Source of the DNA: an uncultured Bdellovibrionales bacterium
GTDB taxonomy: Bacteria > Bdellovibrionota > UBA1018 > CAIPTA01
Direction: 5' to 3'
DNA length: 64,000 nt
Assembly: GCA_964551325.1 (NCBI GenBank)
Contig: CAZKBU010000008.1
Location: forward strand, 82 to 64,081
Shown: one piece after another, positions 1 through 21,913 of the stretch
How positions within the stretch are numbered: position 1 is the first letter of the stretch
Layout of the letters: each line of letters starts with the position of its first letter
Notes under the pieces: model-generated
Told to the model about the DNA's origin: nothing
Databases searched by the model: none
The model's input: the letters and a program-made list of their open reading frames with translations, nothing else
Translations under genes and position numbers: made by a program

Positions 1-54
1 TAGGCCTAATAAATGAAAAAATCGTCAATTATATAAATTAATGAATAAAATAAG

Positions 55-2645: not shown

Positions 2646-2646
2646 A

Positions 2647-3108: not shown

Positions 3109-3224
3109 GGATGGTGATTAACCATTTCAGCGAATTAAAAGCAACCAAAAATCATTGACCATAACTTTTTGTTTAGTTAAAACCCCTCCCGAACGGGCTA
3201 ATACACGTTTTAAGGGGGTCTTAT

Positions 3225-3431
3225 ATGAAAAATTGTGGATTCGCTAAATTAGCGAATTATTCTAACGATGGAAGTGAGGTGGCTAAGAATCGCCAGCTAT
3301 CCAAGGCGCTGGACATGCTTTCCGAGATATTGGAGATCGAGTTCGGCAGCCTTACCGTTCGATTCTTTGACGGTACGTGGAGCCCGAAAATAGAAATCCA
3401 AAAAAACGTCGTGAAAAAGATTAAGGGATAA
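3225..3431 (+). CDS. small protein, YezD/DUF2292-like
   Basis: 68 aa, AAGGGGG Shine-Dalgarno 7 nt upstream. ...EILEIEFGSLTVRFFDGTWSPKIEIQKNV... follows the YezD pattern (...yGsvtivvqdGkvvqiek...). Confidence 0.45.
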   Translation: MKNCGFAKLANYSNDGSEVAKNRQLSKALDMLSEILEIEFGSLTVRFFDGTWSPKIEIQKNVVKKIKG

Positions 3432-3575
3432 ATTTTTTACAAAAGCTGACCCGATATCGGGAGGCAACTGAAAGCGTGGGATTGACCCTACCTCACACGA
3501 GGATGCTGTCCCGTGAAGCTGGCAAAAAAATCGGAATAGGAACCGATAGCGTGGCTTCCGAAAGGAGAACCCATC

Positions 3576-4148
3576 ATGGGATCTCAAATCACAAACGTCC
3601 AGCAGGACAAGCAATGTACCATCAGTCAAGGAAATCACCCTTGGCTCGACGAGCGCGGATTCCCGCTCTCGGACGAACAACTGAGAAGCGTCTCCCGATC
3701 CTGGGACGAGGCTACATGGAACAAATATCTTGAGTGGCATGAAACTCCACGAGCCGAATCGCTGCTCCGTCCGCAGGAATATGACGAGGCTTGCGAAAAA
3801 CTAGAGGAGTCTGTGTTCGTGGACGCCCAGTCAAGTGCCGATGATGAGCTGAAAACACGGATCGGAATGCTGCTCTCGTCTTTGACGGATCAGCAACGCC
3901 GCGTTCTGGAGCCCATTTTCTGGCAGGGGTGGAGCGAACGGCGTGTCGCCCAGGAATTGAAACTGAACCATAAGTCCGTCCATAGGCTGAAAGAACGCGC
4001 TCTCAATAAAATCAGCAAGTTGCTCAAGGGGGGCCCCAGTTCCCGTATTATGAGAGGGGAAATTTCTCCCCTCCATAAAGAAACGGGGGAAATGGATGGC
4101 AAAAAGGTTCTGGGCCTGGCTGATAGAAAAATTCAAAAGGCTGGGTAA
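3576..4148 (+). CDS. sigma-70 region-4-like HTH protein (no region 2 recognisable)
   Basis: AAGGAG Shine-Dalgarno. LTDQQRRVLEPIFWQGWSERRVAQELKLNHKSVHRLKERALNKISKLL matches sigma70_r4/LuxR-type HTH. The N-terminal 100 aa show no region-2 motifs. Confidence 0.6.
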   Translation: MGSQITNVQQDKQCTISQGNHPWLDERGFPLSDEQLRSVSRSWDEATWNKYLEWHETPRAESLLRPQEYDEACEKLEESVFVDAQSSADDELKTRIGMLLSSLTDQQRRVLEPIFWQGWSERRVAQELKLNHKSVHRLKERALNKISKLLKGGPSSRIMRGEISPLHKETGEMDGKKVLGLADRKIQKAG

Positions 4149-4226
4149 GACCGAAGATAACATTGAAAGCTGGCAACGCCTGGAGTTCAAAGACCGAAAA
4201 CGAATCTCTGCCCACCGGGAGAGTTC

Positions 4227-4508
4227 ATGAAACGCGCGGTCGATAGCCAGGTAAGCCGGTTTCTACCCGCGAGAAGCGCTGAGAAAGAAAAAGACATTCA
4301 AACACTTCATGAGCTGCTGCCGAGCCTTGGCGATGAGGAGATCATCGCGGTCTACTTCCGATTTTGGGAGAGCCTGCTGATCGAGGACATCGCCAACATT
4401 CTCGGCTGCTCATGGCACTACACTGACCAACTGATCGAGCGATCCATCCGGAAACTGCGCCAGGGATTCATTGAACTCCCGGCAAAGCGGCAAGCAATCG
4501 CCGCCTAA
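4227..4508 (+). CDS. sigma-70 region-4-like HTH protein (93 aa)
   Basis: EEIIAVYFRFWESLLIEDIANILGCSWHYTDQLIERSIRKLRQGF follows the sigma70_r4_2 pattern. Confidence 0.5.
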   Translation: MKRAVDSQVSRFLPARSAEKEKDIQTLHELLPSLGDEEIIAVYFRFWESLLIEDIANILGCSWHYTDQLIERSIRKLRQGFIELPAKRQAIAA

Positions 4509-4553
4509 GACACCAATAAGTTTAACGCGCAAAAACGCGAAGGAGTTTTTTCT

Positions 4554-4991
4554 ATGGAAAAACAAGTGATCTCTCATGCCAAAAACGACGAATCGAAAAA
4601 ATACTACCGCTTTCAAGTCTTCCAAGGCGAGGAGGACGGCCAAGGCAAAATCCAGAAAACCAAGAGCGTTGGCATGGCATATCTCAAAGACGGCCAGAAC
4701 ATTTTCACACTCAGGCTCTGGATGTTCTCGTGGGAGCGGTACTACATCCTGCCGAACAAGCAAGATTCCTCGAAGTATCTCGTGATGACGCGGGAACCGA
4801 ACAAGAATCCCGGGGCCAAGAACAAATACTTCTGGAACATCGTTGGAAACGGAGTTGTGAAAACCGCCTTAGGTGTGATCCGTTTGGAGTTCGATCTTCT
4901 GAGCAATCCCGTTTACGTGAATACGCATCCTGAGTCGTCGGCCTTTTCGATGAGCCTGCCTGAGCCCGAGGTGCTGCCAGACGCGGCCTAA
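4554..4991 (+). CDS. hypothetical protein (weak DUF736-like pattern)
   Basis: AAGGAG Shine-Dalgarno, 145 aa. IFTLRLW...YILPNK...KNKYFWNIVGNG...GVIRLEFDLLSNPVYVN loosely follows the DUF736 pattern seen on proteobacterial ICEs and plasmids. Confidence 0.35.
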   Translation: MEKQVISHAKNDESKKYYRFQVFQGEEDGQGKIQKTKSVGMAYLKDGQNIFTLRLWMFSWERYYILPNKQDSSKYLVMTREPNKNPGAKNKYFWNIVGNGVVKTALGVIRLEFDLLSNPVYVNTHPESSAFSMSLPEPEVLPDAA

Positions 4992-5048
4992 AGGCCAAAT
5001 TACTTGCGCGTTCATTTGAGCTTCTTCGTCCCCATTGAAGGAGTGCAA

Positions 5049-5336
5049 ATGAAGCACCAAAAAATCTTTCTTGTCCTAGGACTTTTCGTTCTGAGCCTGA
5101 TGTTCGTCCCCGACCTCGCGCATGCGGGGCTGGAGTCGAGCCTCATGGGAATTAAGACGAAGCTGACAGGAGTGATCCTGCCGCTTCTCTCGGTGATCGG
5201 GATTGCCATTGCGGCGATCTCGTTCTTCACCGGGAATCCAAACGCGAAACAGCACATCGTTTACGCGGTGCTGGGCTGTATGTTTGGATTCGGAGCGCAA
5301 GCCATCGTCGATTTCATCGCGCAAACCGTTCGCTGA
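5049..5336 (+). CDS. virB2: T4SS pilin, VirB2/TrbC family
   Basis: ATG at 5049 follows GAAGGAG. Signal peptide MKHQKIFLVLGLFVLSLMFVPDLAHA, then two hydrophobic helices (GVILPLLSVIGIAIAAISFF and VYAVLGCMFGFGAQAIV). Size and topology are typical of VirB2. Confidence 0.7.
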   Translation: MKHQKIFLVLGLFVLSLMFVPDLAHAGLESSLMGIKTKLTGVILPLLSVIGIAIAAISFFTGNPNAKQHIVYAVLGCMFGFGAQAIVDFIAQTVR

Positions 5337-5345
5337 CGGGAGGCG

Positions 5346-5669
5346 ATGATGGAAGACGATGGACTCCTGACAAGCCGGGTTCCAAGAGCCCTGGAGATGA
5401 AGTCGAAGCTGTTCGGATACGAGTTGCCGGACCTTTTGCTCATCTTTATGAATCTTGCGATCACGAACCTTGTCTTCGGTGCAACGTCCTTCCGCTACCT
5501 CTTGGTATGGGGAACAACGCTATCGCTGGCGTTGTTCCTCTTTTTCGCCAAGCGCGGAAGGCCCGACAACTACCTGCAACACCTGATCGAGCATTTTGTC
5601 CATCCCGCGCACTTCGCTGCCGGGCGCGGCGACCGAATCTATCGGCGCTTTAAGAGGAACCATGAATAA
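5346..5669 (+). CDS. VirB3/TraL-like inner-membrane T4SS protein
   Basis: 107 aa, sits directly between the pilin and VirB4. Two TM segments followed by KRGRPDNYLQHLIEHFVHP, which resembles the TraL motif (KKGRG..WLRDLIYWYMP). Confidence 0.5.
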   Translation: MMEDDGLLTSRVPRALEMKSKLFGYELPDLLLIFMNLAITNLVFGATSFRYLLVWGTTLSLALFLFFAKRGRPDNYLQHLIEHFVHPAHFAAGRGDRIYRRFKRNHE

Positions 5670-8175
5670 GCAAAAAGACACCTCGCTTTGCGAGGAGCTT
5701 CCGTATTGGGATTTCATCGACGGCCCCAAGGCCCATGCCGTACTCCACGACGGCTCGCTCGTCGCGGGCCTGCGCGTTGGTCTGATCGACATTGAGTGTT
5801 TTGACGAGGCGGAAACGAACAACCTCACGATAGGGCTGCGCTCGGCGCTGAACTCCGTTGCGGAGGGCATCTCACTCCAGTTCGTGCTTCGGGTGCGTTC
5901 CGACTTCGCTGACGTGATTGATGCCCACGAGAAAGGCAAGACCGAGAACATTCACCCGCTAGTAAAAAGTATCGCTACTTATCGAGAGAACGCGCTTCGA
6001 TCGGCAATTGAGGCCGGAACACTCTACCGTCCAGAACTCCTGATCTACGTTCGCACGCCTGCGGTCGAGACCAAGAAGGTTAGCATCTTAAAAAAAAAGG
6101 AGCTGTTCTCAGAGGAATCTGCGAAGGCGTACCAGGAAACTCTCGAAGTCTTGGGTCAGAACCTTGAAACGCTGGTTTCTTCGCTTCATGGCCTCGGGTT
6201 CTCCTGCAAAGAACTCACGCGGGAGGAGATGGTCGCGAACGTCTATGAGTTTCTAAACCCTCGGCGCTCGCGCACCGAGCCCGCGCCGATGGTGAAGACA
6301 TTCAATGAACTCGACATTGAGAAGGATGTACTTCAGGAGGTGGAGTGGCTTGCGGCGCAATCCCCTCGGGAACAACTTGTCTTTGGTGATCTTATGATGG
6401 GATTCGAGCAGTTCACGCTCGACGGTTTCTATCACCGGGTTATCACGCTCAAGACTTTACCGGAAATGACTTTCGCGGGCCAGCTCGCGCATTTCCTGCG
6501 CCTGCCGTTCCACTATGACTTGATCCTTTCGCTCGACGTGCCTCCCCAGGCGTCGGAAATGTCGAAGCTCCAGCAAAAACGCAAGATGGCTCACTCGATG
6601 GCCGTAACCTCCGGCGGCAAGGCAAGCGATCTCGAAAGTGAAACGAAGCTCTCTTCCACGGAAGAACTGATCCGCGAGCTTTTGAACACCGGTCAGCGCA
6701 TTTTCGCCGTCCAGATGAGCGTAATCCTGAAGGCCCCGGCAACTCCAGAGGGTACGAAGAAGCTCAACCGCGACGCCCGCGAAGTCCTGGCTCGCTTCCG
6801 CTCACTTCAGGGTGCGGAAGGCTTGGAAGAAAGCGTTGGCGCATGGAAGGTGCTGAAAGGCTCCCTTCCTGCGGCACCTCTGACTTTGGAGCGTGCCCGA
6901 AAGTTGAAGACGAACAACCTGGCCGACTTCCTCCCGGTCTACGGACCTCGGGAGGGTGACAAGAACCCGGTTGTTATCTTCCGAAACCGTTTGAATGGAC
7001 TGGTGAGTTACGACGGCTTCGATGCGGGCCTTGGGAATTACAACATTCTCTGCACCGGTTCATCCGGCGCAGGAAAGAGCTTCTTGAACAATGCCATTTT
7101 GATGCAGGAACTCGCGCGGGGCTTGCGCGTCTTCATTATCGACATCGGCGGCTCCTACAAGAAACTCACTGAAACACTGGGAGGTCAGTACCTCGAGATC
7201 AATCTCTCCGACAATTATCGAATCAACCCGTTCGACATTCCCAATCCGAGAGAGGAACCGAGCAACCAAAAGCTGAAATCCCTACTTGCCTGCGTGGAGA
7301 GCATGGTGAGCGAGGACGAAAAAGCGAAGCTCCCAAAGCTCGACCGCGCCCTCCTGGAACGGGCAATCATCGAGCTTTACAAAAGCCGGAGAGCCAAAGG
7401 TGAGGTGCCCGTTCTGAGCGATCTCGCCCGGTATCTGTCGGCGTTCGAGGAGCCTTCGATGAAGGCCATCTCGAAAATGCTCTATTTGTGGACCGGCGAG
7501 CGCCCGTATGGACGACTCCTCGACGGCCCCGGAAGCCTTCGCACGGATGCACCGATCTGCACCTTCGACCTCAAGGGGCTTTCGGCCTACCCGGACCTTC
7601 AGAGCGTGATGATTTTGATTTTGACGGACTTCATTCTTACGCAGGTCGAAGGCGACCGCACAACGAGAAAGCGAATCATCCTTGATGAAGCCTGGGAGAT
7701 GCTGAAATCGAATGCGGCGGCATCATTCATGGAGTATTGCGCGAGAACGCTTCGTAAAACTGGATCGGGGATCACGTTTATCACTCAAGGCGTGGAAGAA
7801 ATCGTCGCAAGCCCGATCGGGCCAGCGATCCTCAACAACACCGCAACCAAGTTCGTGATGCTCCAGCGGGGCGACTCCGAGGTTCTGCGGGACACCCTGA
7901 AGCTCAACGACCAGGAAATCGCTCTCATCCATTCGCTCGGTCAGAAGAAAGGCGAATTTTCCGAGGGTTTTATGATCGAGGGCGATCATCGCCAAGTCGT
8001 GCGGATTTTCCCTAGCCCGTTTGAATACTGGCTGTCCACCTCGGACTCCCAGGACAACTTGTATCTCTCCGACCTGAGAAACCAGGGGCTGGACCTCGTA
8101 GCGGCCATCGAGAAAGCGGCCGGGGTCTATCCAAATGGCGTGGCTCATGGCCGTGCCGTGAAGGAGGTAGCATGA
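5662..8175 (+). CDS. virB4: T4SS ATPase VirB4/TraC
   Basis: ATG 5662 overlaps the upstream stop. Walker A CTGSSGAGKSF, Walker B RIILDEAWEML. Size (~837 aa) and position after the B3-like gene fit VirB4. Confidence 0.9.
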   Translation: MNKQKDTSLCEELPYWDFIDGPKAHAVLHDGSLVAGLRVGLIDIECFDEAETNNLTIGLRSALNSVAEGISLQFVLRVRSDFADVIDAHEKGKTENIHPLVKSIATYRENALRSAIEAGTLYRPELLIYVRTPAVETKKVSILKKKELFSEESAKAYQETLEVLGQNLETLVSSLHGLGFSCKELTREEMVANVYEFLNPRRSRTEPAPMVKTFNELDIEKDVLQEVEWLAAQSPREQLVFGDLMMGFEQFTLDGFYHRVITLKTLPEMTFAGQLAHFLRLPFHYDLILSLDVPPQASEMSKLQQKRKMAHSMAVTSGGKASDLESETKLSSTEELIRELLNTGQRIFAVQMSVILKAPATPEGTKKLNRDAREVLARFRSLQGAEGLEESVGAWKVLKGSLPAAPLTLERARKLKTNNLADFLPVYGPREGDKNPVVIFRNRLNGLVSYDGFDAGLGNYNILCTGSSGAGKSFLNNAILMQELARGLRVFIIDIGGSYKKLTETLGGQYLEINLSDNYRINPFDIPNPREEPSNQKLKSLLACVESMVSEDEKAKLPKLDRALLERAIIELYKSRRAKGEVPVLSDLARYLSAFEEPSMKAISKMLYLWTGERPYGRLLDGPGSLRTDAPICTFDLKGLSAYPDLQSVMILILTDFILTQVEGDRTTRKRIILDEAWEMLKSNAAASFMEYCARTLRKTGSGITFITQGVEEIVASPIGPAILNNTATKFVMLQRGDSEVLRDTLKLNDQEIALIHSLGQKKGEFSEGFMIEGDHRQVVRIFPSPFEYWLSTSDSQDNLYLSDLRNQGLDLVAAIEKAAGVYPNGVAHGRAVKEVA

Positions 8176-8879
8176 AACGATTCAAGAAATGGATTGTGAT
8201 GGGAATGGTGGGTTTGTGCCTCACCATTCCTAAGCCCGCCAAGGCCGACTTGTTCGGCGGTGACGTGGTGATCCTGACTCAAATTCTTGCGAACGCCATT
8301 CAGCAGCTTGTTCAACTGAGACAAATTCTCTCGACTGGATCAGACACGCTCACTCTCATGCGCGACATCAATCGAGGGATCAGGGACGGACTCGCGGCCC
8401 TTCAGATAATTAACCCGAGATTCAATCCGGGAATTTACGGGAATCTCGAAACCGCGGATCGAGTCTTGAGCATTATCAATGACCTGTACGGGAGAATCCC
8501 CGAGACAACGGAAGCGAGGCTTCAACAGGCGCAGGACCAGTCGGCCTCTGAAAGCATCGCCATGAACGGACCGATGTTTCGCTTTGCTGACGAGGCGGAT
8601 GAGGAGAGCCGGAGAATTTTCGCCCATTCACAGAATGTAAACCCGCAGGGGGCGGCGAAACTCACGGCGCAATCCTTGGCAATTTTGATCGGTGTCACAA
8701 CTCAAGTGCTTCGATCCAATTCGATGATCTTAAAAGCAATGGGCGAAAACATGGCCCTCCAAAACAGAAAAGAAAAGCTCCAGTCGCTGCAATTCAAAAC
8801 CCAATACGAAGGCATCTCCGGCGCGCTTGGCTCTCTCCCTAGGGACACAAAGCTGAACACGCTGAGATCGGGAGAGTGA
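8172..8879 (+). CDS. secreted T4SS component, VirB5/TrbJ-like
   Basis: ATGA overlap with virB4. Signal peptide ...PKPAKA, then DLFGGDVVILTQILANAIQQLVQLRQIL, which resembles the TrbJ N-terminal helix. Helical, about 210 aa mature. Confidence 0.45.
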   Translation: MKRFKKWIVMGMVGLCLTIPKPAKADLFGGDVVILTQILANAIQQLVQLRQILSTGSDTLTLMRDINRGIRDGLAALQIINPRFNPGIYGNLETADRVLSIINDLYGRIPETTEARLQQAQDQSASESIAMNGPMFRFADEADEESRRIFAHSQNVNPQGAAKLTAQSLAILIGVTTQVLRSNSMILKAMGENMALQNRKEKLQSLQFKTQYEGISGALGSLPRDTKLNTLRSGE

Positions 8880-8882
8880 CCT

Positions 8883-9770
8883 ATGCCGGACTTTGGACTT
8901 TTAGGTTCACTCATGGTGGACCTTCATCGGGAGTTCGTGCGGATTTTCTACTTGATGCTTCCCGTATTCTTCTGCTTGTCGATTGCGGTGACTTGGTTCC
9001 GCAATCCCGGAAATCTTGAGTTCTTGGATGTTTTGAAAAGAGCAGTGATTTCAACTCTTCTCCTTGCAGCATTTCCCGAGATCAGCCAGGCAATTATTTT
9101 CATTGCCGATGGTATTGCGGAAAGAGTCGATCAGATGCAGGGACTTGACGTATTCCTGCGAATGGCAAAAGAGAAGGCGCTAAGTTTCACCTTCGTGAAA
9201 AACACACTTCTTCTACAGTTTCCAGACCTCATCATCGCACTCCTTTCTTTCGTGAGTTACCTGATCCTCTATATCGCGCGATACCTCACCATTGCGATGT
9301 ACCACTTTTATTGGATCTTCTACATGGTGTCCGCTCCACTCCTGCTGCTGTTCAACTTATTTCCGTCCACGAGCCAAATTACGGCGAATTTGTTTCGGGG
9401 AATGGTGGAAATTGCTAGCTGGAAGATCGTTTGGGCGATTCTTGGTGCGATGCTGACGGCGCTTTCGTTCGGGGACAGTTACCGCGCCCAAGATGACTAC
9501 CTGATTCTGATGGTGATGAATTTCGTCATCGCCATTTCGATGTTGAAAACGCCTTCCGTCGTGTCCTCTTTGGTTGGAGCGGGACTCAACTCTATGGCTC
9601 CGAGTGTTGGCGCGGATGCAGCGATGACGATGGCGGCGGTTCCGGCGAAGGCCGCAATGGTCTACACCAAAGGGAAAGTAATTGCGGGTGGTGCCAAGAA
9701 TTTCGCTGGAACCCGAATTGCGAATCATCGGGCTGAGAAAGAAAAACGCGCAGCTATGTATCGCTATTAA
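8883..9770 (+). CDS. polytopic membrane T4SS component, VirB6/TrbL-like
   Basis: 295 aa with at least 5 hydrophobic helices. Sits in the canonical position after the B5-like gene. Confidence 0.6.
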   Translation: MPDFGLLGSLMVDLHREFVRIFYLMLPVFFCLSIAVTWFRNPGNLEFLDVLKRAVISTLLLAAFPEISQAIIFIADGIAERVDQMQGLDVFLRMAKEKALSFTFVKNTLLLQFPDLIIALLSFVSYLILYIARYLTIAMYHFYWIFYMVSAPLLLLFNLFPSTSQITANLFRGMVEIASWKIVWAILGAMLTALSFGDSYRAQDDYLILMVMNFVIAISMLKTPSVVSSLVGAGLNSMAPSVGADAAMTMAAVPAKAAMVYTKGKVIAGGAKNFAGTRIANHRAEKEKRAAMYRY

Positions 9771-9781
9771 GGAACTAAAAA

Positions 9782-10369
9782 ATGAACCAAACAATTCAGC
9801 TAAAGCTCAAGAAACTTCCCAAAGCACTTGGGGAACTCGCTCACTCGAATCAGTTTTTGAAAATGTCGGCATTTTCCTCCTATGGAATTTGCGTTCTTTT
9901 GATCGGAATTATTTTCTATCAGGCCGGAAAGCCTCCAATGGTCCTGCCGCTCGCTCCGGACGCTTCCCTCTATCAGAGCACGGAACAACCAAAGCCGGAA
10001 ATTGAGGTACGGCAAGCAATCAGGGAGTATTTAGAAAGGCGTTACAAATGGGAGCCAAAAACCATTTTGAAGCAACTGGCGGCGGCGCAGGTATTTATTC
10101 TTCCAAGTACGAAAAGGACGTTTGAGGTTTCCACCGCTGGCGTGGCGAAATTTTCCCAGGAAAAACTTGTTTCCCAGCGGGTTTACGCGGACCAGATTCA
10201 AGTGGATACCACCAAAAAGCTCGTCATGATCCGAGGTGATCGCGTGACGGAAATCCAAGGAATGAAAGCAGCCGGTGATTTGCGGCTTGAATTATCTTTC
10301 GAGTACGGCCCAAGGACCGCGCAAAACCCCTGGGGAGTGTACGTCCTAAAAGAACGCGAAGAACTCTGA
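9782..10369 (+). CDS. bitopic T4SS component, VirB8/TrbF-like
   Basis: N-terminal TM (SAFSSYGICVLLIGIIFY) plus a ~140-aa periplasmic domain ending in ...AQNPWGVYVLK, like the NPLG-type motif of VirB8. Confidence 0.55.
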   Translation: MNQTIQLKLKKLPKALGELAHSNQFLKMSAFSSYGICVLLIGIIFYQAGKPPMVLPLAPDASLYQSTEQPKPEIEVRQAIREYLERRYKWEPKTILKQLAAAQVFILPSTKRTFEVSTAGVAKFSQEKLVSQRVYADQIQVDTTKKLVMIRGDRVTEIQGMKAAGDLRLELSFEYGPRTAQNPWGVYVLKEREEL

Positions 10370-10415
10370 AAAACCAAATGAGCCACTAAAAAACCCTCTA
10401 TCCAAAGGAGGGCCC

Positions 10416-11126
10416 ATGAATCCTTTTCTCTGGATTCTGTTGCTCGCATTTTCCCTTCCCCATACTGCATGGGGAAGGGTCCGAAAAATTGAAGTTGGCC
10501 AAGATCAAATTGTCACCGTCAGAACCGCCATTGGAATCGCCACGATCATTCAGGTGCCGGATCGTCCGAATAGCATCGTGGTTGGCGACCAAGCCGGATT
10601 CAAGGTCGAATATCTCGACCAGGCGATCACGATAAAACCTCTTCACGGGGGCGCGAAGAGCAACCTGTATGTCTATACGGATTATCGGCGTTTCAATATC
10701 CAGCTTGTTACCGGCGGCGAAGCATCCGCCGATTATGTCGTCTATCTTGAAAACCCAAAAGAGAAACCACAGAAATCTTCTCTCGTCTGGACGACTTTCA
10801 AAAATCATCTGAACAACGACGGACTTAAATTTGAAGTGAAGCGCCTGGGCCGAACCAAAGATGGGCTGCTCATCGTCGAATTTGCAATTCTGTCGGAGAA
10901 AAAAGAGAAATTGAAACCGGATTGGATTTGGTTAACCCAAAGCGGAGTCACCCGTCCGATTCACAATCTGATTCTTTCGGGCCAAGAGCTGCGCCCGAAC
11001 CAAGGCATCCAGGGAATGATGCAGATTCTGAAAGGCGATGTCTCCGACACCGATCCTTTGCAAATTGAATTGAGACGGCAAAAGACCTCCTATCTCACAA
11101 TTCCAAAGGTAACAGCATGGAAGTAA
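10416..11126 (+). CDS. virB9: T4SS outer-membrane core component, VirB9/TrbG-like
   Basis: AAAGGAGG Shine-Dalgarno and a signal peptide. IEVGQDQIVTVRTAIGIATIIQVPDRPNSIVVGDQAGFKVEYLDQAITIKP...NLYVYTDYRRFNIQL follows the VirB9/CagX N-domain pattern. Confidence 0.7.
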   Translation: MNPFLWILLLAFSLPHTAWGRVRKIEVGQDQIVTVRTAIGIATIIQVPDRPNSIVVGDQAGFKVEYLDQAITIKPLHGGAKSNLYVYTDYRRFNIQLVTGGEASADYVVYLENPKEKPQKSSLVWTTFKNHLNNDGLKFEVKRLGRTKDGLLIVEFAILSEKKEKLKPDWIWLTQSGVTRPIHNLILSGQELRPNQGIQGMMQILKGDVSDTDPLQIELRRQKTSYLTIPKVTAWK

Positions 11127-12094
11127 CTGAAAAAATGCCTTTTAAAGAAAGGCTTTCGGGCCTCTTTTTCAAAGAGAAAGCGTATTTCCTCGCTCGCAGG
11201 GAGATTAAATGGAAGAGCATTCAGAAATGCGCGATTGCGGCAGTCGCTGTAGGAGTCATAGTTGTACTTTTCCTTCCGAATCCTGAGCAACCGCAGGGAT
11301 CATTTCACGAACGAGCTGAAGCAGGTTCAATTTCCCGGTCAAGGTCTATAGAAGGTGATCCCACTCAGGAAGCTATTGCACAAATGCAAGGCGGAGGATC
11401 AGGACGTTATGTCCCTGGATCGCTCGATCATCTATACGTCAACAATAGTGGTTCCGGCCCGAGTTCGGCTGCGCCCGATCGCAGTAGTTCGATGGTTCTC
11501 ACGAGAGGCGGCGGCGACACAAAGACGCAAATTCCTCCTGGCTCCCGTTTAGCTGTTCGACTTTATGAAAAAGCTGTTGTGGCAAGCCAGGGAATGCCCA
11601 TCATTGGCATGGTGACCCGCGACTATGTGCATGAAGATGCCGTAGCCGTCCCCCAGGGGTCAAAGCTATTTGGCGAGATTTCCTTTGATGATGGCGGTGA
11701 CCGGGCACGAATTGATTGGCGTGTCATTCAGCTTCCCGATCGAAGAGAGCGTCCGATTTCCGCGCTGGGAATCGGGGCGGACGGCCAAGTGGGTGTGGCC
11801 GGAAAAGTTCATTCCGAGGCGCTAAAAAACACGATTGGACAGACTCTTACCCGATTCATCGGCGCTTACGCCGAGGGCTCCATGCAGCGCGGACCAATGG
11901 GATCAAACCAAGGTGGTAGCGACAACGGATTGAGAAACGCGGTGGCCGAAACCGCCAAGGACCGCGCCGAAGCGTGGGCCGATGATCTGAAAAAAGAAAA
12001 CCGCTGGATTGAGGTTTCAAACGGCACGGAATTTTACGCCGTTCTCACGCAAAGCTTTGCATTCAGGGACCCAGGAGCAACTTATGGCAGATAA
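11117..12094 (+). CDS. virB10: T4SS core component, VirB10/TrbI-like
   Basis: 10-nt overlap with the B9-like gene. N-terminal TM, low-complexity linker, and a C-terminal domain IPPGSRLAVRLYEKAVVASQGMPIIGMVTRD...VPQGSKLFGE...GQVGVAGKVHSE typical of TrbI/VirB10. Confidence 0.7.
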   Translation: MEVTEKMPFKERLSGLFFKEKAYFLARREIKWKSIQKCAIAAVAVGVIVVLFLPNPEQPQGSFHERAEAGSISRSRSIEGDPTQEAIAQMQGGGSGRYVPGSLDHLYVNNSGSGPSSAAPDRSSSMVLTRGGGDTKTQIPPGSRLAVRLYEKAVVASQGMPIIGMVTRDYVHEDAVAVPQGSKLFGEISFDDGGDRARIDWRVIQLPDRRERPISALGIGADGQVGVAGKVHSEALKNTIGQTLTRFIGAYAEGSMQRGPMGSNQGGSDNGLRNAVAETAKDRAEAWADDLKKENRWIEVSNGTEFYAVLTQSFAFRDPGATYGR

Positions 12095-13694
12095 AAACGA
12101 AAAGGCCCAAGCTAGCGACCACACGCTGATTTGGGGAGCCGGAATATTTTTCGGCGTCATGATTCTGGATAAGCTGTGTAACCTTTTTTTGAAATGGATC
12201 AAATCACCTCAAAACCAGATGTTCTTTATCGGAGCGATCATCGCGGGGCTTACCGCCCTCTTTTATTGGGCGGCGAGAAAACGGGAAATCGCCCTTGCGA
12301 GGAGAAAGCAAGCAGCGGCGGTTCTTGGTCCCGCCGAAGGCTCCGTGTTTTGCGGGGTAACTGATAAGCGCAAGCCTGTTCACATCAAACCAAAACAGCG
12401 GGCCATGCACACCCAAGTCATTGGCACCACGAACGCTGGTAAAACGGAGTCTGTGATTCTTCCCTGGGCCATTCAGGATATTGAAAAAGGGCGCGGTCTT
12501 GTCTTAATTGATGGAAAAGCGGATCGAAGCTTACTTGATAAGCTCTGGGCGTATGCGGTGAAACACAAGCGCGAAAAGGATTTTCGCTTGTTTTCCCTGA
12601 GCCACATTGAGGAATCGCATCAGTTTAATCCTCTCGTGGGCGGAACTCCCGAAGAAGTTTCAGAGCGGGTCTTTAATTCTTTCGAGTTTGAAAATGCCTA
12701 TTACCGAAGCGTCCAGTTTGAGATTTTCTCACAGGTTTTGCGAATCTTCGCGGCTGCCAATGAAATTCCAACTTTTTTGAAGATTCATCAGGCAATCACT
12801 GAACCCAATAAACTGGTGGCTCTCAGCCGGGAAACGGGAGACGACTCGCTCAAACAATGGGCGGCCTACTACCGGGATCTTCCGCCGAGTGAACGCACCC
12901 AGCGCATCAGCGGCTTGACCGCGGCCTTGAGCCATTTTGCCTTTGGAAAAACCGCGAGTCTCTTTAATACCGAAGCACCGACCATAACGCTTGACGAGAC
13001 ACTGGGAAAAAATCTGATCGTATATTTCCAGCTTCCGGTGCTTCTCTCCCCCTTTCTAGGAAAGGCATCGGGAAAAATGATTCTACAGTGCTTACAAAGC
13101 GCCGTAGCCAATCGCCACCGTGGAACTAACCGGCAGCACAAGTTTTTCTCCGTCTTTCTGGATGATTTTTCCGAGTACCTGTATCCGGGGTTCGTTTCGG
13201 TTCTGAACAAATCAAGAAGCGCCAATGTCGGCGTCGTGTTCGCGCACCAGGCTCTCGGGGATATTAAAACGATGGGCGATGCCATTGCCAATTCCATTCT
13301 GACAAACGCAAATTTGAAAGTTTTCATGCGCGGCAACGATCCTGAGTCGGCGGAATACTTCGCCAAGGTCATTGGAACGATGAAGGGGCAAAAATTCACT
13401 GAAAGAACAAAAAGAAGCCTTTGGAACAACCAAACGACGGGAGACGGGTCAATCCGCGAAGTCGAAGAGTTCATCATCCACCCGAATAAATTCAAAAGTG
13501 AACTTGGTGTCGGCGAGGCCGTCATGGTCATTCCCCACGAGGCCGGAAGTACCGCCATCAATATCAAATTCCAAAAATTCGACGATCTTGAGGCAAAAGA
13601 ACTTGAGCTGATTCACAAAGAGGCACCGAAGGGTCTTGTCCTTCGGGAGCTGAAAGTTCCTGAGAACAAGGAACCAAAAATGGAGGCCGCATGA
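12084..13694 (+). CDS. virD4: type IV coupling protein VirD4/TraG family
   Basis: ATG 12084 follows AGGAG and overlaps the B10 stop. Two N-terminal TM helices, Walker A VIGTTNAGKTES, Walker B FFSVFLDDFSEY, and VVFAHQALGD. Confidence 0.85.
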   Translation: MADKNEKAQASDHTLIWGAGIFFGVMILDKLCNLFLKWIKSPQNQMFFIGAIIAGLTALFYWAARKREIALARRKQAAAVLGPAEGSVFCGVTDKRKPVHIKPKQRAMHTQVIGTTNAGKTESVILPWAIQDIEKGRGLVLIDGKADRSLLDKLWAYAVKHKREKDFRLFSLSHIEESHQFNPLVGGTPEEVSERVFNSFEFENAYYRSVQFEIFSQVLRIFAAANEIPTFLKIHQAITEPNKLVALSRETGDDSLKQWAAYYRDLPPSERTQRISGLTAALSHFAFGKTASLFNTEAPTITLDETLGKNLIVYFQLPVLLSPFLGKASGKMILQCLQSAVANRHRGTNRQHKFFSVFLDDFSEYLYPGFVSVLNKSRSANVGVVFAHQALGDIKTMGDAIANSILTNANLKVFMRGNDPESAEYFAKVIGTMKGQKFTERTKRSLWNNQTTGDGSIREVEEFIIHPNKFKSELGVGEAVMVIPHEAGSTAINIKFQKFDDLEAKELELIHKEAPKGLVLRELKVPENKEPKMEAA

Positions 13695-14137
13695 AAAAAG
13701 AAACGGCGAACTTCTATTGTTTTTCGATGATTCATTTGCTTGCTTTCGCTTTAGCGATGGCCGGATGCGCCACACAGAACAAAAGCGCGGGATTGGGTGG
13801 AATGATCGGCGTCGGAACGGGAGCCGCTTTGGGCGGAATCGCTGACCCTGGAAAAAATGGAGAGTATCGCACGAGGAATGTCATCGTGGGCGCAACTCTT
13901 GGCGGGATGACCGGGCTCGTTGCGGGATCAGTCATCCACGACGAGATGGAGTCACAAAAGAAGGAGGCATTTTTGAAAGGACGCGCATCGGCTTCCCCAG
14001 CCCAGGCGGGAGCCATGCCGTCCTTGAAAAATCCTAAAGTGGAATCACGGTGGATTGAGGGCCGGGTGGTTGGAAACCGATTTATCGAAGGGCATTTTGA
14101 ATACGTCATCATTGAACCAGCAAAGTGGGACAACTGA
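13691..14137 (+). CDS. glycine-zipper lipoprotein (possible VirB7 analogue)
   Basis: ATGA overlap with virD4. Lipobox LAMAGC. Gly-zipper GLGGMIGVGTGAALGGI...GATLGGMTGLVAGSV. Confidence 0.6.
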   Translation: MKKETANFYCFSMIHLLAFALAMAGCATQNKSAGLGGMIGVGTGAALGGIADPGKNGEYRTRNVIVGATLGGMTGLVAGSVIHDEMESQKKEAFLKGRASASPAQAGAMPSLKNPKVESRWIEGRVVGNRFIEGHFEYVIIEPAKWDN

Positions 14138-14874
14138 TGCGTCCCTTGAAAGTGCCCGAAGCGGAGATTCGCTATGCGGCTAAAACAGGATTTCTGACGA
14201 AAAGAATCTGGGAAGATTTTTTTGCGGGCGATATTCCGGGCTGGAAGCGGCGTCGCTTATGGAGATGCTTTGCAGTGAGAGGCTTCTTCCGGCCACACCC
14301 ATCATCACTTGCGAAGCAAGTCCTAATACTAAACCGAAAATCGCCAATGGTTTTTAAACTTGTAGGCGATGAAATTTCCTCACCGCCATTCGTTTCGCAA
14401 CTGGAACACGACGAGACTGTTGCGCGGATTCTTTTGGACCTGAAAAAGGCGGGAGTCATCCAGTCCTTTACAACCGAGATGGAACTGAAAAGGGAAATCA
14501 AAGAAAAACAGCGTTACGATGGGTCCGTTAAAATGAAATATCCAGACGCGATTATTGAAGTCAGCGGACCTATGACCAAAATAAAAGTTGCCCTGGAACT
14601 TGAACTGACCCGCAAAGACCCGAAGCGATACAGGCAATGCCTGAACACTTACGCTGCCCGAAGGGAAGTAAGCCAGGTTGTTTTCATTGCGAGAGCCAAT
14701 GCCGTCTTCGATTCCCTTCGCAGGGCGATGCGGGAAACCTACTATCCTGATTGGGAGCGTCCTATCGGCTTTTCTCCTCTTGAGGAATGGAAGCGGAATC
14801 CCGCCGAAGCGGCAATCTGCTTTAGCGAAACGCAAACGTCATTGAGATCAATCCACAAAAAAATGAACTCTTGA
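14137..14874 (+). CDS. Replic_Relax (replication-relaxation, PD-(D/E)xK-like) family protein
   Basis: ATG 14137 shares its A with the upstream TGA (a GTG at 14125 is also possible). LEHDETVARILLDL..., then KYPDAIIEV...KVALELELTRK (a PD...ExK nuclease-type motif). The overall pattern recalls Pfam Replic_Relax. Confidence 0.5.
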   Translation: MRPLKVPEAEIRYAAKTGFLTKRIWEDFFAGDIPGWKRRRLWRCFAVRGFFRPHPSSLAKQVLILNRKSPMVFKLVGDEISSPPFVSQLEHDETVARILLDLKKAGVIQSFTTEMELKREIKEKQRYDGSVKMKYPDAIIEVSGPMTKIKVALELELTRKDPKRYRQCLNTYAARREVSQVVFIARANAVFDSLRRAMRETYYPDWERPIGFSPLEEWKRNPAEAAICFSETQTSLRSIHKKMNS

Positions 14875-14966
14875 GTTTCGGTTCTCAAAGTGTTCACTGC
14901 GGACTAAAACTCCGAAGCAGCTCATCATACCGACAATCCGGAATTGAATGAATTTCTAACAAGTTA

Positions 14967-15076
14967 GCCGCCGCCGCCTCACCAAGCCAGTCCCCTAATC
15001 GCAAAAGACCACTCCCCCCCAACATTAGTTGAGTGGAAGTGGTCTTTTGCTGGTGACTGACAAGGATCGGCGGCGG
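14967..15076. promoter_or_regulatory. candidate oriT: long imperfect inverted repeat
   Basis: Perfect 13-bp stem GCAAAAGACCACT (15001-15013) / AGTGGTCTTTTGC (15038-15050). It is extended by CAGTC (14988-14992) / GACTG (15055-15059) and CCGCCGCC (14968-14975) / GGCGGCGG (15069-15076). Lies in the only sizeable intergenic gap of the transfer region. Confidence 0.35.
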
Positions 15077-15078
15077 TG

Positions 15079-15528
15079 ATGTATGTGAATGGGGAAATTA
15101 TGGATAAGAATAATAATATTTTTAATACGGGAACGGGATCGGGTGCGGGAACAGAAGACGGGAACGAAAGCCATCGGTTGACGATTACGAAAGCGGCGGA
15201 GCAAGCTCTCGTATCGGCTGTTGACCGGATCAACGATGGCTTTCAAGGGGGAAAGGTCAATCGGAACCAAGTCGCAATCTGGGCGCTCTCGCGCTTTGGC
15301 GAAACCCTTGGTCCCGACGAAATCAGGGAAATCCGCGCGGAGTTCTTGGACGAGTTTTCGGCCTTGGATGCCATCCTGCGCCGAGCCAAGAACACCGGAA
15401 AAATGCCTCCTGAATTAAAAGCCTTTTTGCAAAGACAGATGGGGCTAGATGATTCACCGAAGAAAAAAAGCAAAAAGGGCTTGCAGGATAATGTAATCAA
15501 TGATTACATTGAAGATAACAAGGTCTGA
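15079..15528 (+). CDS. hypothetical protein (possible relaxosome or regulatory accessory)
   Basis: 149-aa ORF with no recognisable motif. The start is ambiguous (GTG 15076, ATG 15079, ATG 15100). Co-directional with the downstream XRE and recombinase genes. Confidence 0.45.
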   Translation: MYVNGEIMDKNNNIFNTGTGSGAGTEDGNESHRLTITKAAEQALVSAVDRINDGFQGGKVNRNQVAIWALSRFGETLGPDEIREIRAEFLDEFSALDAILRRAKNTGKMPPELKAFLQRQMGLDDSPKKKSKKGLQDNVINDYIEDNKV

Positions 15529-15538
15529 GTGAAAGTTG

Positions 15539-15760
15539 ATGGAAGCGGAAGAGATCAAACGGATCAGAGACAAACTCGGCATGAGCAGGGACGGACTCGC
15601 GCAACTGATGTGTCTTGGCTATCGAAGCCTCATGCACATTGAGCTTGGAACGAGGAACCCGAGCAAACTGACTATCCGTCTCCTCCGCTATATCGACTCA
15701 CTCCCTAAGACGAAAGCCCTGGCCTTTATTGAGGAACTGAAACGACATGAACCTAAATAA
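15539..15760 (+). CDS. XRE-type HTH protein
   Basis: IKRIRDKLGMSRDGLAQLMCLGYRSLMHIELGTRNPSKLTIRLLRYI is a Cro/C1-like HTH. 73 aa. Confidence 0.7.
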   Translation: MEAEEIKRIRDKLGMSRDGLAQLMCLGYRSLMHIELGTRNPSKLTIRLLRYIDSLPKTKALAFIEELKRHEPK

Positions 15761-15989
15761 GTTCGTCAAAATACTTAGGAGCTTTATGGCTCGCAGAGAA
15801 AGTCGCAGCGGCAAAAGAGCCGCCATCGCCAATCTGCGCGTTCAGTTGATCCCGGTCCGCAAAGAAAATTTCGATGTCACGACTCACCGACAAGTGATCG
15901 GGCATTTATTAAGTATGATGGTCCTCAACCTGCACAAGCGGGGTCGGCCAAAGAAGAACGAGGAAGGAGAACTCAGCTATGCGATATAA
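15747..15989 (+). CDS. small basic protein (possible recombination directionality factor or regulator)
   Basis: 80 aa. Overlaps the XRE gene by 14 nt and the recombinase gene by 11 nt. Contains the AT-hook-like KRGRPKK. Confidence 0.4.
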   Translation: MNLNKFVKILRSFMARRESRSGKRAAIANLRVQLIPVRKENFDVTTHRQVIGHLLSMMVLNLHKRGRPKKNEEGELSYAI

Positions 15990-17739
15990 GGTTGGAGTTT
16001 ACGTCCGTGTCAGCACCGACGAACAAGCCCTCCGCTCGGAGGGCTCGCTTGAGACGCAAAAACACAGAATCCTGGCCGAAGTAGAGAACCGCAACAGGCG
16101 CGAGAGCGGATGGGGCAAGGTTTTTGATGTTTATGAAGATGACGGTTATTCGGCGGCTGGATACCGTCCCGCCTATGAGCGCCTGATGGCGGACATTCGC
16201 AAAGGGAAAGTGAATTTGATTTTCGTGGCCGACTATTTCCGGTTTTGCCGCCACTTGCTTGATTATCTGAGTCTTGCGGAGGATTTGAAAAAGATTGGCG
16301 CAAAGATTCTCTCCGTCAAAGACAACTTTGATACCGAGACCGCGATGGGCCAGTCCATGATCCGCAACTATATCAATATGGCGCAGACAGAGCGGGAACT
16401 GACGGCTGAAAGGGTTGCCACCAACTTCCATGCCCGTGCTCTTCGCGGACTTAGGAATGGCGGGCGCATCCTTTATGGATTTGACCGGAACGACAAGGAC
16501 TTGGCCCGCCTAATGATCAATGAAAGCGAGGCACGGGAGATTCGGGAAGTTTTCCGCGTCTACTTGGAGGAAGGAACCTGCGGCAAGGCAACGGATCGTC
16601 TCAACCAGAAGGGCCTTCTCAGAAAGACCAAAAGCTACAAGGACGACAGCATCGTAAAGGCCGAGCCGTGGACCCGCTCTGCGGTTCACTACGTCTTAAG
16701 AAACCCGGCATACGCTGGCCTCCGTGAGATCAACAGGAAGAACAAGGACCAGGATCAGACGACCTTGAAGGAATCAGCGCAATACAAAGTTGTTCCCGCA
16801 TCGTGGCCCGCCATTGTTGACCAAACGACCTGGAATACGACGCAGGAAAGTCTCAACTTCGCGCTGTCCAAGGCGCGCGAACGGATGAAAGGAAAAACGA
16901 AAAGAGATTTTCTCCTCTCGGGCATCCTCAAATGCGCGGAGTGCGGCGGCTCCCTTATGGGGGCAACGGGACACGGAACAAAGTCCGTCCACAGATACTA
17001 CGTCCACCGCCATGTAAAAGGGAGAGCAATCGAATGCTCGATGGACTGGATTCCCGCCGACGACTTGGAGACGGCGATCCTTGAAAAATTGGACCTCGTT
17101 TTAACAGACGAAGGGTACCTCAACAATCTTGAGGTCACGATGGAAAAGATTGCAACAGACCGCCAATCCGATCTGCGACTGGAAAAGGAAACCCTGGAAT
17201 CAGGGTACTCGAAAATCGAAGCGGAAATCCGAAAGACAATCCAAGTCCAGGCGCAATGCGCTGATGTGACAGTGGATGATGTTTTCCGGGATCAGCTCCG
17301 AACCCTTGGCGACGAGAAACGAATCATGAAAGTCCGACTGGACGAAATTGAGAACCAGCTTAGAGATTTCATCGCGCCGAAGGAAGCGCGGAACGCGATC
17401 AAAATTAACGTGACCGTCTTTAAGAAGGCATACACCAAAGCCAAAAACGTCGTTCGCAAGCGTCTGCTTGGAACCGTTTTTGATTCTCTCACTTTAGGCA
17501 ACTGTGAACTGAATCTGTATTTCAATCAGACCGTCGGTTCAGCGGAAGCCGTCCACTATGCACAAAACAAAAAGTCCTCGGGGGTTTCCTCCGAGGACTC
17601 TCTTCTCGTTGCAAAAATCCTACAATTTAAAAGACCAGTTCGTGAGGCTTCCGCCCCCGGTCTGACCGGAGCCCTTTCCCGGGATGAAAGGGTCATTTTA
17701 CGTGAAGTTGTTGGAATTGGTCGGGGTGGCGGGATTTGA
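15979..17739 (+). CDS. large serine recombinase
   Basis: AAGGAG Shine-Dalgarno. N-terminal resolvase catalytic motif YKVGVYVRVSTDEQ, recombinase domain, Cys-containing LKCAECGGSLMG...H zinc-ribbon-like segment, and a long coiled-coil region. 586 aa. The stop TGA at 17737-17739 lies inside tRNA-Pro(CGG). Confidence 0.9.
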   Translation: MRYKVGVYVRVSTDEQALRSEGSLETQKHRILAEVENRNRRESGWGKVFDVYEDDGYSAAGYRPAYERLMADIRKGKVNLIFVADYFRFCRHLLDYLSLAEDLKKIGAKILSVKDNFDTETAMGQSMIRNYINMAQTERELTAERVATNFHARALRGLRNGGRILYGFDRNDKDLARLMINESEAREIREVFRVYLEEGTCGKATDRLNQKGLLRKTKSYKDDSIVKAEPWTRSAVHYVLRNPAYAGLREINRKNKDQDQTTLKESAQYKVVPASWPAIVDQTTWNTTQESLNFALSKARERMKGKTKRDFLLSGILKCAECGGSLMGATGHGTKSVHRYYVHRHVKGRAIECSMDWIPADDLETAILEKLDLVLTDEGYLNNLEVTMEKIATDRQSDLRLEKETLESGYSKIEAEIRKTIQVQAQCADVTVDDVFRDQLRTLGDEKRIMKVRLDEIENQLRDFIAPKEARNAIKINVTVFKKAYTKAKNVVRKRLLGTVFDSLTLGNCELNLYFNQTVGSAEAVHYAQNKKSSGVSSEDSLLVAKILQFKRPVREASAPGLTGALSRDERVILREVVGIGRGGGI

Positions 17740-17795
17740 ACCCACGACCTCTTCGTCCCGAACGAAGCGCGCTAGCCAGGCTGCGCCACACCCCG
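17718..17795 (-). tRNA. tRNA-Pro (anticodon CGG)
   Basis: The reverse complement reads CGGGGTGTGGCGCAGCCTGGCTAGCGCGCTTCGTTCGGGACGAAGAGGTCGTGGGTTCAAATCCCGCCACCCCGACCA. 7-bp acceptor stem, anticodon stem CTTCG/CGAAG with loop TTCGGGA, GGTTCAAATCC T-loop, encoded CCA. Confidence 0.9.
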
Positions 17796-17880: not shown

Positions 17881-17934
17881 ATACGGAATTCAGTACTGAA
17901 TACGGTATACGGTATTCAGTATACCGTATTCAGT
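17881..17934. repeat. array of four 14-mers ATAC[CG]G[TA]ATTCAGT (orientations +,-,+,+)
   Basis: Copies are atacggaattcagt (17881-94), actgaatacggtat (17895-908, inverted), atacggtattcagt (17907-20) and ataccgtattcagt (17921-34). This gives a perfect 15-bp inverted repeat, 17895-17909 / 17920-17934. Confidence 0.85.
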
Positions 17935-17941
17935 CTTTGAA

Positions 17942-18019
17942 TGGTCGGGGCGGCGGGATTTGAACCCACGACCCCCTGCTCCCAAAGCAGGTGCGCTAGC
18001 CAGGCTGCGCCACACCCCG
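17942..18019 (-). tRNA. tRNA-Pro (anticodon UGG)
   Basis: The reverse complement reads CGGGGTGTGGCGCAGCCTGGCTAGCGCACCTGCTTTGGGAGCAGGGGGTCGTGGGTTCAAATCCCGCCGCCCCGACCA. Anticodon loop TTTGGGA. D and T arms are identical to the CGG isoacceptor. Confidence 0.9.
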
Positions 18020-21642: not shown

Positions 21643-21719
<77 letters not shown>

Positions 21720-21726
21720 TTTCAAA

Positions 21727-21756: not shown

Positions 21757-21768
21757 GAAGTTTCTGGA

Positions 21769-21896: not shown

Positions 21897-21913
21897 GAGC
21901 CCGCAGCTATTTC

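Follow-up and report, generated by a model that had tools for sequence, protein, structure and literature searches.

A clade of large serine recombinases whose genes end inside convergent tRNA genes, with a proposed integration site at the tRNA 3' end

In a stretch of 64,000 nucleotides from an uncultured Bdellovibrionales bacterium (assembly GCA_964551325.1, contig CAZKBU010000008.1; hereafter the window), the gene for a large serine recombinase (LSR) runs into the 3' end of a proline transfer RNA gene, tRNA-Pro(CGG), that lies on the opposite strand. The same arrangement recurs in a clade of related recombinases at tRNA genes of many types, and in two relatives both ends of the inserted element can be delimited. 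I consider it probable that an integrative and conjugative element of more than 20 kb has its right end in the window, that the chromosomal site of its serine integrase is the tRNA-Pro(CGG) 3' end, and that the crossover is in the last bases of the tRNA gene.

The open reading frame (ORF; coordinates of all features are collected in Table 1) encodes 586 amino acids (aa) from an ATG start to the C-terminus ...VGIGRGGGI, followed by TGA. The protein matches the Pfam families Resolvase (PF00239, residues 7-157, E 2.6e-25), Recombinase (PF07508, E 1.4e-18) and Zn_ribbon_recom (PF13408, E 2.5e-12), giving the order catalytic domain, recombinase domain, zinc ribbon with coiled coil and disordered tail (533-586). 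The nucleophile S12, inside YVRVSTDEQ, is invariant across 41 homologues, and every catalytic and invariant residue is intact in the window protein. The AlphaFold (AF2) model is confident up to about residue 531, with long helices at 380-485 between the zinc-ribbon strands, and gives a predicted local distance difference test score (pLDDT) below 50 for residues 533-586, a tail that is poorly conserved among homologues. As the family profile also matches the structures of SPbeta SprA (9dxh, E 1.4e-28, profile positions 64-509 of 584), TP901-1 (3bvp) and A118 (4kis), the window protein is, by these matches, a member of the large serine recombinase family.

An earlier account of the window, made from its letters alone (the sequence-only reading), had described a 586-aa LSR with a catalytic motif, a zinc-ribbon-like and a coiled-coil region, ending within the convergent tRNA-Pro(CGG); the Pfam matches, the AF2 helices and the agreement between ORF and ARAGORN coordinates bear this out. 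The two genes overlap by 22 nt, which comprise the CCA, the discriminator, the 3' strands of the acceptor stem and the T-stem and 6 nt of the T-loop. The stop codon of the recombinase (17737-17739) lies within the T-loop, where TTCAAAT is read backwards as ATT-TGA.

This overlap is not peculiar to the window. From 80 genomic loci gathered with the family alignment (individual loci carry L numbers below), I used the 39 clade loci with a complete ORF end, mostly from Bdellovibrionota, for counting. In 25 of these the end of the LSR ORF falls within a convergent tRNA gene; L012, L008 and L032 are further likely cases. Sixteen anticodon types are represented among the overlapped tRNAs (Met, Ala, Gln, Val, Arg, Leu, Pro, Gly, Ser, Asn). 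Nearly all offsets between tRNA end and ORF end are multiples of three, with the mode at -21, the value of the window and of 10 other loci. The C-termini of homologues with 72-35% identity read as back-translated tRNA 3' ends (GRGDRI-stop, GRGGGI-stop, GRGDRIRTCDPLVPNQMRYQTALRP, GCGGRI-stop); where the T-loop has TTCGAAT in place of TTCAAAT no stop arises, and the ORF runs deeper into the tRNA. Among control loci, a tRNA at the LSR end was found in 0 of 76 viral loci, which came from a viral contig scan and are distant only (31% identity or less), and in 2 of 34 other genomic LSR loci. Because the same arrangement occurs in the same frame in 25 of 39 clade loci against these low control counts, the overlap is more than chance, and by this comparison it is a non-random trait of the clade.

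Two relatives show where such an element joins the chromosome. For the comparison all loci were anchored at the tRNA 3' end, with x1 at the T of TGG (CCA on the opposite strand). In L051, an 8.9-kb element sits at tRNA-Val(UAC), with a Lon protease gene beyond, between attL (...gcagAAAA / TGGTAGGcgcgacgatattgtaTTCGAACcaaccc) and attR (...cttgaAAAA / TGGTAGGgagtacaggaTTCGAACctgcg), which share an 11-nt direct repeat as core (AAAATGGTAGG, x-3 to x7). The P and P' arms of this element have TGGTTCGAA in common (9 of 9 positions), mirrored about x5.5, that is, about tRNA positions 72/71; the reconstructed attP reads GACGCTGGTTCGAACAGCTTGAAAAATGGTAGGCGCGACGATATTGTATTCGAACCAACC, and attB is the 3' end of tRNA-Val(UAC). 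In L069, an 11.3-kb element at tRNA-Asn is bounded by an exact 12-nt repeat, GGAAGTGGCTCC, from x-4 to x7. Both repeats span the CCA end and the first three acceptor bases. As just seven tRNA bases (x1-x7) are duplicated, the crossover in these two elements lies among the outermost 3' bases of the tRNA gene.

The same seven-base duplication counts against a crossover deeper in the tRNA, in the T-loop or the anticodon loop, by which the element would supply the 3' 20-45 nt or so of the tRNA and leave a displaced fragment of that length at its far end. Such a crossover would suit the T-arm, which is a natural palindrome, as well as the non-tRNA arm of L011, whose likeness to tRNA-Gln extends over about 20 nt (16 of 20) and then breaks off, and the tRNA of L035, whose non-Watson-Crick pairs 49-65, 5-68 and 1-72 are all on the 3' strand. 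However, no tRNA repeat of 12 nt or more is present in the upstream flank of any locus, the T-stem pairs co-vary within each tRNA between close elements (L021/L022, L023/L025), and the window's tRNA-Pro(CGG) has exactly the same T-arm as the host tRNA next to it. I therefore regard a deep crossover as unlikely.

Further evidence for the proposed integration at tRNA genes comes from the element itself. Over roughly their last 40 nt, the LSR genes are similar to the sense strand of the adjoining tRNA's 3' half, in inverted orientation and with the mirror centre at x3. Matches to the own tRNA average 13.5 of 30 positions, against 11.1 +/- 0.39 with permuted tRNAs, and none of 20,000 permutations reaches the observed value; for the anticodon and variable part alone the figures are 7.3 and 5.05 of 17. 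Overall the mimicry covers only about 45% of positions. In the window, CGGGATGAAAGGGTC (17680-17694) mirrors the tRNA sense sequence CGGGACGAAGAGGTC, from anticodon to variable loop (17746-17760, other strand), and the mirror match of the arm amounts to 13 of 17 positions.

The spacing of the motifs is informative as well. In the element arms of 21 loci, GTTCrnn begins at -19 precisely. Every real tRNA has its T-loop motif at x18-24, whereas L038 and L042, with right arms that are not tRNAs, have it there at x23-29. With the centre placed between x5 and x6, the motif falls at positions 18-24 of the element arms and 13-19 of the tRNA arm. In the structure-based model of serine-integrase sites, the zinc-ribbon motif occupies half-site positions 16-24 in attP and, 5 bp nearer the centre, positions 11-19 in attB (PMC3783163). 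The spacing in the clade, as read from these alignments, matches this 5-bp shift of known serine-integrase sites.

These observations leave little room for the element being a passive relic, fixed or otherwise inserted, with an ORF that simply runs to the first stop in the neighbouring DNA and is functionally unconnected with the tRNA. A relic would explain why excision products were not seen, why the tail shows disorder and poor conservation, and why the island carries an insertion sequence (IS) remnant; it would not explain one register at 16 different tRNA types, P-arm mimicry that co-varies with the tRNA, the paired junctions of L051 and L069, the lack of tRNAs at the 76 viral control loci, or the intact catalytic and invariant residues of the window protein, and it is very unlikely. 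I consider it highly improbable, too, that the inverted imitation of the tRNA works as RNA, by forming a long hairpin at the 3' terminus of the recombinase transcript or in the trailer of the tRNA and thereby controlling expression. The mimic and the antisense tRNA could pair (in the window 12 of 15 positions in Watson-Crick pairs plus 2 G.U), but the mismatches between mimic and tRNA are wobble-compatible in similar numbers on the two strands (114 vs 98, with 313 transversions), only about 45% of positions match, and the motif spacing obeys the rule for DNA half-sites. The absence of a wobble bias makes a DNA half-site preferable to an RNA hairpin.

That the tRNA is host DNA is supported by its sequence and its surroundings. 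The 22 nt of its T-arm are identical to those of the adjacent host tRNA-Pro(UGG), whose gene its 5' half matches as well. In the relative L166, whose RNase PH is 78% identical, a chromosomal tRNA-Pro(CGG) without adjoining recombinase has a 3' half identical to that of the window, and the flanks of the two diverge three bases past the CCA. To the right, the genes for RNase PH, endonuclease III and PolX/PHP polymerase follow, and the synteny PolX-Nth-RNase PH-tRNA-Pro(UGG) is kept in L166 and L167. The guanine-plus-cytosine (GC) content is 0.47-0.55 left of the recombinase and 0.59-0.64 right of about 18 kb, and the shift falls at the tRNA. On the shared T-arm, the L166 copy and the synteny, tRNA-Pro(CGG) and everything to its right is host DNA. 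The host belongs among the Bdellovibrionota by its RNase PH homologues (Bacteriovoracia/Oligoflexia-like, the nearest 79% identical), and the sequencing runs that contain the window sequence are bioreactor and wastewater metagenomes.

The sequence-only reading had offered as its second alternative that the tRNA is carried by the element and that the true junction lies further right, at a '14-mer array' or, as one might add, at tRNA-Pro(UGG); I give this next to no credence, for although the tight CGG-UGG pairing is not ancestral synteny (the two tRNA-Pro genes are 8 kb apart in L166, and L167 has no CGG gene nearby), the tRNA stands in the clade-wide register beside the P arm, the unintegrated-type junctions of L029, L038 and L042 and attL of L051 are without tRNA, the GC shift and the likeness to the L166 and UGG genes speak for the host, and the array is just a simple hairpin. 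This hairpin, between the two tRNA-Pro genes, has a predicted folding energy of -36.9 kcal/mol as RNA (z -7.4) and is a host intergenic structure rather than a junction; it may be a terminator or a processing signal.

Joining the arms of the element has a consequence for the protein. If the arms of L051 are joined as a circle, the ORF encodes 660 aa, compared with 613 aa in the integrated form, and the new tail contains a helix-turn-helix (HTH). A natural P-P' junction exists in L029, where the 3' part of an LSR gene with an L021-type arm continues in frame through an L051-like right arm into a conserved HTH extension, 75% identical to that of L051. L029 has two LSR genes (3854-4837 and 9971-12274), of which the first is a C-terminal remnant crossing this arm/arm junction, which suggests a tandem array of elements. 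Long isoforms without tRNA tail were found also in P0007 (714 aa, 67% identical to the window LSR), P0037, P0039 and L013; after the arm-encoded peptide they carry a C-terminal extension of 150-170 aa, with HTH_38/HTH_40 and a second, partial match to the Recombinase domain. As the ORF reads on into an extra module at P-P' junctions, integration at a tRNA would swap this module for a few tRNA-encoded residues and so truncate the enzyme. In the relatives the protein thus appears to differ between the free and the integrated state; for the window LSR the register suggests the same.

For the window I propose the following. The attP would lie inside the 3' end of the LSR gene, in DNA coding for the disordered tail, and the crossover would most likely take place at tRNA positions 72/71 (17722-17723). 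The element would then contribute 17718-17721 alone, the complement of CCA and discriminator, and 17724-17739 of the ORF would be host DNA. Since the ORF spans the junction, its last 5-6 codons and the stop would be host tRNA sequence, and since all of the tRNA except discriminator and CCA would remain that of the host, no long displaced tRNA fragment would be made. The T-arm and the anticodon arm of the tRNA would serve as host half-site, both imitated in inverted orientation by the element arms; in the subgroup that mimics the T-loop, the mimic would stand 5 bp further out, as in known attP/attB pairs of serine integrases. In the unintegrated form the ORF would continue into the left end of the element, which in several relatives encodes an HTH module, in part with a recombinase-domain-like portion, and integration would truncate the enzyme. 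The sequence-only reading had proposed, as its first alternative, that the recombinase targets the tRNA-Pro 3' region and that its C-terminus spans the junction and changes on excision; the clade register, the L051 and L069 junctions and the longer P-P' ORFs strengthen this proposal for the family, and from these I infer the exact crossover, the C-terminal change and the mobility of the window element.

Several observations weigh against this interpretation. The recombinases of L051 and L069 share just some 30% identity with the window's, and the dyad symmetry of whole arms is not significant by total counts. The tRNA-Pro subgroup to which the window belongs has the anticodon/variable-loop mimic without the T-loop mimic at -19, so that its half-site geometry is carried by register only and may differ in detail. 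A G1.U72 wobble is present in 4 of 31 LSR-adjacent tRNAs (L021, L022, L034, L035) and in 0 of 13 control tRNAs from the same loci, and the L035 tRNA also has an A5.C68 mismatch; these could be scars of a 3' end supplied by the element, with position 72 derived from the element or with a deeper crossover in some loci. Neither a recombination directionality factor nor a clear relaxase was identified among the element proteins. The left junction of the window element was not found in the window or in 2.7 kb further left (L001), whether by searching for the tRNA end (as exact or degenerate matches), for the P arm as its reverse complement and for the 12-nt core, or by tblastn with the C-terminal extension, and no further copy of the tRNA 3' end is present there. 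Finally, neither a same-species empty site nor an excision junction was retrieved. For the flank protein no record was found, the nearest RNase PH being just 79% identical, and a metagenome scan returned 4 short loci; the empty-site comparison draws on L166 and L167, which are distant proxies, the former having tRNA-Pro(CGG) without a recombinase.

Some candidates for such sites did not hold. Logan contigs end at 17744/17747, which could be taken for a branch towards attP, but these ends were rejected, as the k-mers of the tRNA core are common to other community members (depth 300-1500) and break the assembly there. The locus L169 (P0004) was tried as an attP and discarded, its dyad not being significant, and in L027, where left-end backbone genes follow the LSR, there is no clear dyad.

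The body of the element is conjugative. VirB4 ATPase, coupling protein and mating-pore genes were all found, so the hallmark genes of type IV secretion are present; the sole relaxase candidate is a 249-aa protein with a weak, sub-cutoff match to the MobC replication-relaxation family (E 4.5e-5, 22.9 vs 200 bits). No tyrosine integrase (Phage_integrase domain) occurs among the island ORFs scanned. The same gene order precedes the LSR in L012-L022, L169, L171, L176 and L178, and since this backbone ending in a recombinase recurs in many contigs, the recombinase appears to be the integrase at the right end of a widespread family of conjugative elements. Only the right end is within the window, and with the left junction absent from the window and the adjoining 2.7 kb, the element should be more than 20 kb long. 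The nearest LSR is 72% identical, whereas relatives of VirB4 reach 93%, from which it appears that the integrase module evolves, or is swapped, faster than the conjugation backbone.

Table 1. Features of the window discussed in the text (window coordinates; an empty cell means that no value is given)
Feature	Position	Strand	Basis or remark
Large serine recombinase gene	15979..17739	+	ORF, Pfam, SprA profile match, AF2
Proposed P arm of hybrid site, encoded in disordered tail	17678..17721	+	Mirror match, family permutation test
Predicted crossover dinucleotide CG, tRNA 72/71	17722..17723		By register from L051/L069 cores (end x7) and L051 dyad axis x5/x6; PMC3783163
Proposed B' arm: acceptor 3' strand, T-arm (TTTGAAC 17735-17741), variable loop, anticodon stem	17724..17760		Motif register
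Overlap of ORF end and tRNA 3' end, 22 nt, convergent genes	17718..17739		-21 offset, found at 10 other loci too
Host tRNA-Pro(CGG), intact, CCA encoded, acceptor stem fully paired; proposed B' half	17718..17795	-	ARAGORN, L166 comparison
'14-mer array': 16-bp perfect inverted repeat ACTGAATACGGTATAC / GTATACCGTATTCAGT, hairpin	17895..17934		Separates the two tRNA-Pro genes; immediately 3' of tRNA-Pro(UGG)
Host tRNA-Pro(UGG)	17942..18019	-	ARAGORN; adjoins RNase PH / endonuclease III / PolX as in relatives
Conserved conjugative backbone	3576..15989	+	Domain matches, gene order common to relatives
Sigma-r4-like protein, 190 aa, backbone	within 3576..15989	+	
VirB2 (TrbC)	5004-5336	+	
VirB3-like	5346-5669	+	
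VirB4 (TraC) ATPase	5596-8175	+	
VirB6-like	8883-9770	+	
VirB9 (CagX)	10416-11126	+	
VirB10 (TrbI)	11117-12094	+	
Coupling protein (TraG-D_C/T4SS-DNA_transf)	12009-13694	+	Lipoprotein gene next in backbone
MobC-like, 249 aa	14125-14874	+	
Small backbone genes: 150 aa, HTH 74 aa, 80 aa		+	After MobC-like gene, before LSR
Low-GC cargo-like region	1..3575		Composition, gene content
IS3-family OrfA remnant, short ORF MKKGRFSDEQIAGILAESRAGASTQELCRKHGIPRRDN-stop	131-255		Transposase N-terminal HTH, looks truncated
Major facilitator superfamily transporter	295-1521	-	
375-aa unknown protein	within 1..3575		
HTH repressor-like	2647-3108	-	

Several side observations on these regions and on related loci may be recorded. 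The IS3 OrfA remnant hints at rearrangement in the cargo region. In the 2.7 kb to the left of the window start (L001 6864-9545) there are a glutathione peroxidase gene and a gene for a large EF-hand-containing protein; their GC of 0.40-0.49 is below that of both element and host core, and they may represent further cargo or another island. On the host side, GC dips to 0.52-0.56 after an initiator-type tRNA-Met (21643-21719), in a region (21643-23900) with genes for a tetratricopeptide repeat protein and an HNH endonuclease, which could be a small island or a remnant. In L038, a defence operon resembling cyclic oligonucleotide-based antiphage signalling systems (JAB, E1/ThiF-like, SMODS nucleotidyltransferase, SAVED effector; 5956-10693) stands directly downstream of the LSR with the non-tRNA right arm. 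In L020 (2293-3185), the LSR 3' end abuts VirB4 and a 235-aa backbone gene, both inverted, on a 3.2-kb contig, pointing to an inversion or a misassembly. L176 (2108-7643) and L179 (2193-7842) have a common left-hand module on the minus strand, with a sigma-54 response regulator, a histidine kinase, a solute-binding protein, a small ORF and YcaO, that may be a regulatory cargo block or one for a ribosomally synthesised and post-translationally modified peptide; no att-like sequence was found at the left ends of these two loci, and their mutual homology stops at the response-regulator gene.

Two further loci, L169 and L181, whose LSRs are 68-70% identical to that of the window, have tyrosine integrase genes (L169 11804-12955, L181 2765-4080) that converge on the LSR stop at a distance of 28-59 nt (28 nt in L169), and L181 has an Xis-like HTH_17 gene as well. 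The two tyrosine integrases are only about 32% identical to each other, and the arm on the LSR side is tRNA-Pro-like for 10 nt in L169 and for about 36 nt, with a net +4 nt, in L181. These may be tandem or nested elements, the second using the same tRNA or a tRNA-like arm.

Genes for tRNAs are the classic landing sites of tyrosine integrases. The premise of the sequence-only reading, that LSRs are rarely associated with tRNAs, agrees with the paper on Islander by Hudson et al. 2015, by which only tyrosine integrases were known to target tRNA genes and serine recombinases were not known to do so (PMC4383910). In the later literature searched, which did not cover the 2020 TIGER paper and may thus have missed an earlier mention, there was no description of serine integrases at tRNA genes. 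The present clade would be one of serine integrases at a target class formerly tied only to tyrosine integrases.

The clade has the same domain order as the large serine integrases of phages and other elements (A118/LI integrase, SPbeta SprA, TP901-1, Bxb1, phiC31; CcrA/B, TnpX), and the sites of the window's relatives share with theirs the short length, the small common core and the 5-bp offset of the outer motif. In contrast to those integrases, which use protein-coding or intergenic sites, it appears to target tRNA 3' ends, with an attP inside the integrase ORF and arms whose imitation of the tRNA reaches as far as the anticodon arm, and its unintegrated forms carry an extra C-terminal HTH/recombinase-like module. 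Islands and elements of the Islander type, with tyrosine integrases, likewise abut a tRNA 3' end, with the integrase adjacent and the tRNA functional; however, no tyrosine integrase was seen among the window island ORFs scanned, and instead of a displaced fragment of 15-45 nt only about 7 nt are repeated in L051 and L069. The outcome would thus be like that of tyrosine-integrase tRNA islands, while the chemistry and the logic of the site would be those of a serine integrase.

Two kinds of tyrosine integrase come close in the layout of the gene. In Mx8 IntP (Tojo et al. 1996, as cited in PMC4383910) attP is in the 3' end of the integrase gene, and integration into a tRNA gene alters the C-terminus, as proposed here; however, the Mx8 enzyme is of the tyrosine family and has a long core plus arm sites, whereas the clade has a serine recombinase with a short core. 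In the 'suicidal' archaeal integrases of the SSV type, according to the account in PMC7253208, the site is inside the integrase ORF, the target is a tRNA, and the gene is split on integration. These are archaeal tyrosine recombinases with a gene split near the middle, while in the clade a C-terminal tail or module would be swapped and the catalytic core left intact.

Taken together, the clade may read tRNAs as landing sites by means of an attP made of two inverted imitations of the tRNA 3' half. In this scheme, which as a whole I put forward tentatively and hold to be rather less than an even bet, the HTH/recombinase-like module of the free form may read the anticodon-arm part and so give specificity for a tRNA, its loss on integration would be a built-in switch of directionality, and retargeting would proceed by rewriting the imitation. 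If the clade does use tRNA genes, the serine and tyrosine integrases would have reached convergent solutions to the problem of inserting at a conserved essential gene without breaking it. The apparent truncation on integration could be a new way of controlling directionality. Serine integrases are in wide use as DNA-insertion tools. Related enzymes that nature has redirected to 16 or more tRNA types would form a series useful for learning how serine-integrase specificity is coded, and enzymes aimed at near-universal tRNA sequences would be of practical interest for DNA insertion.

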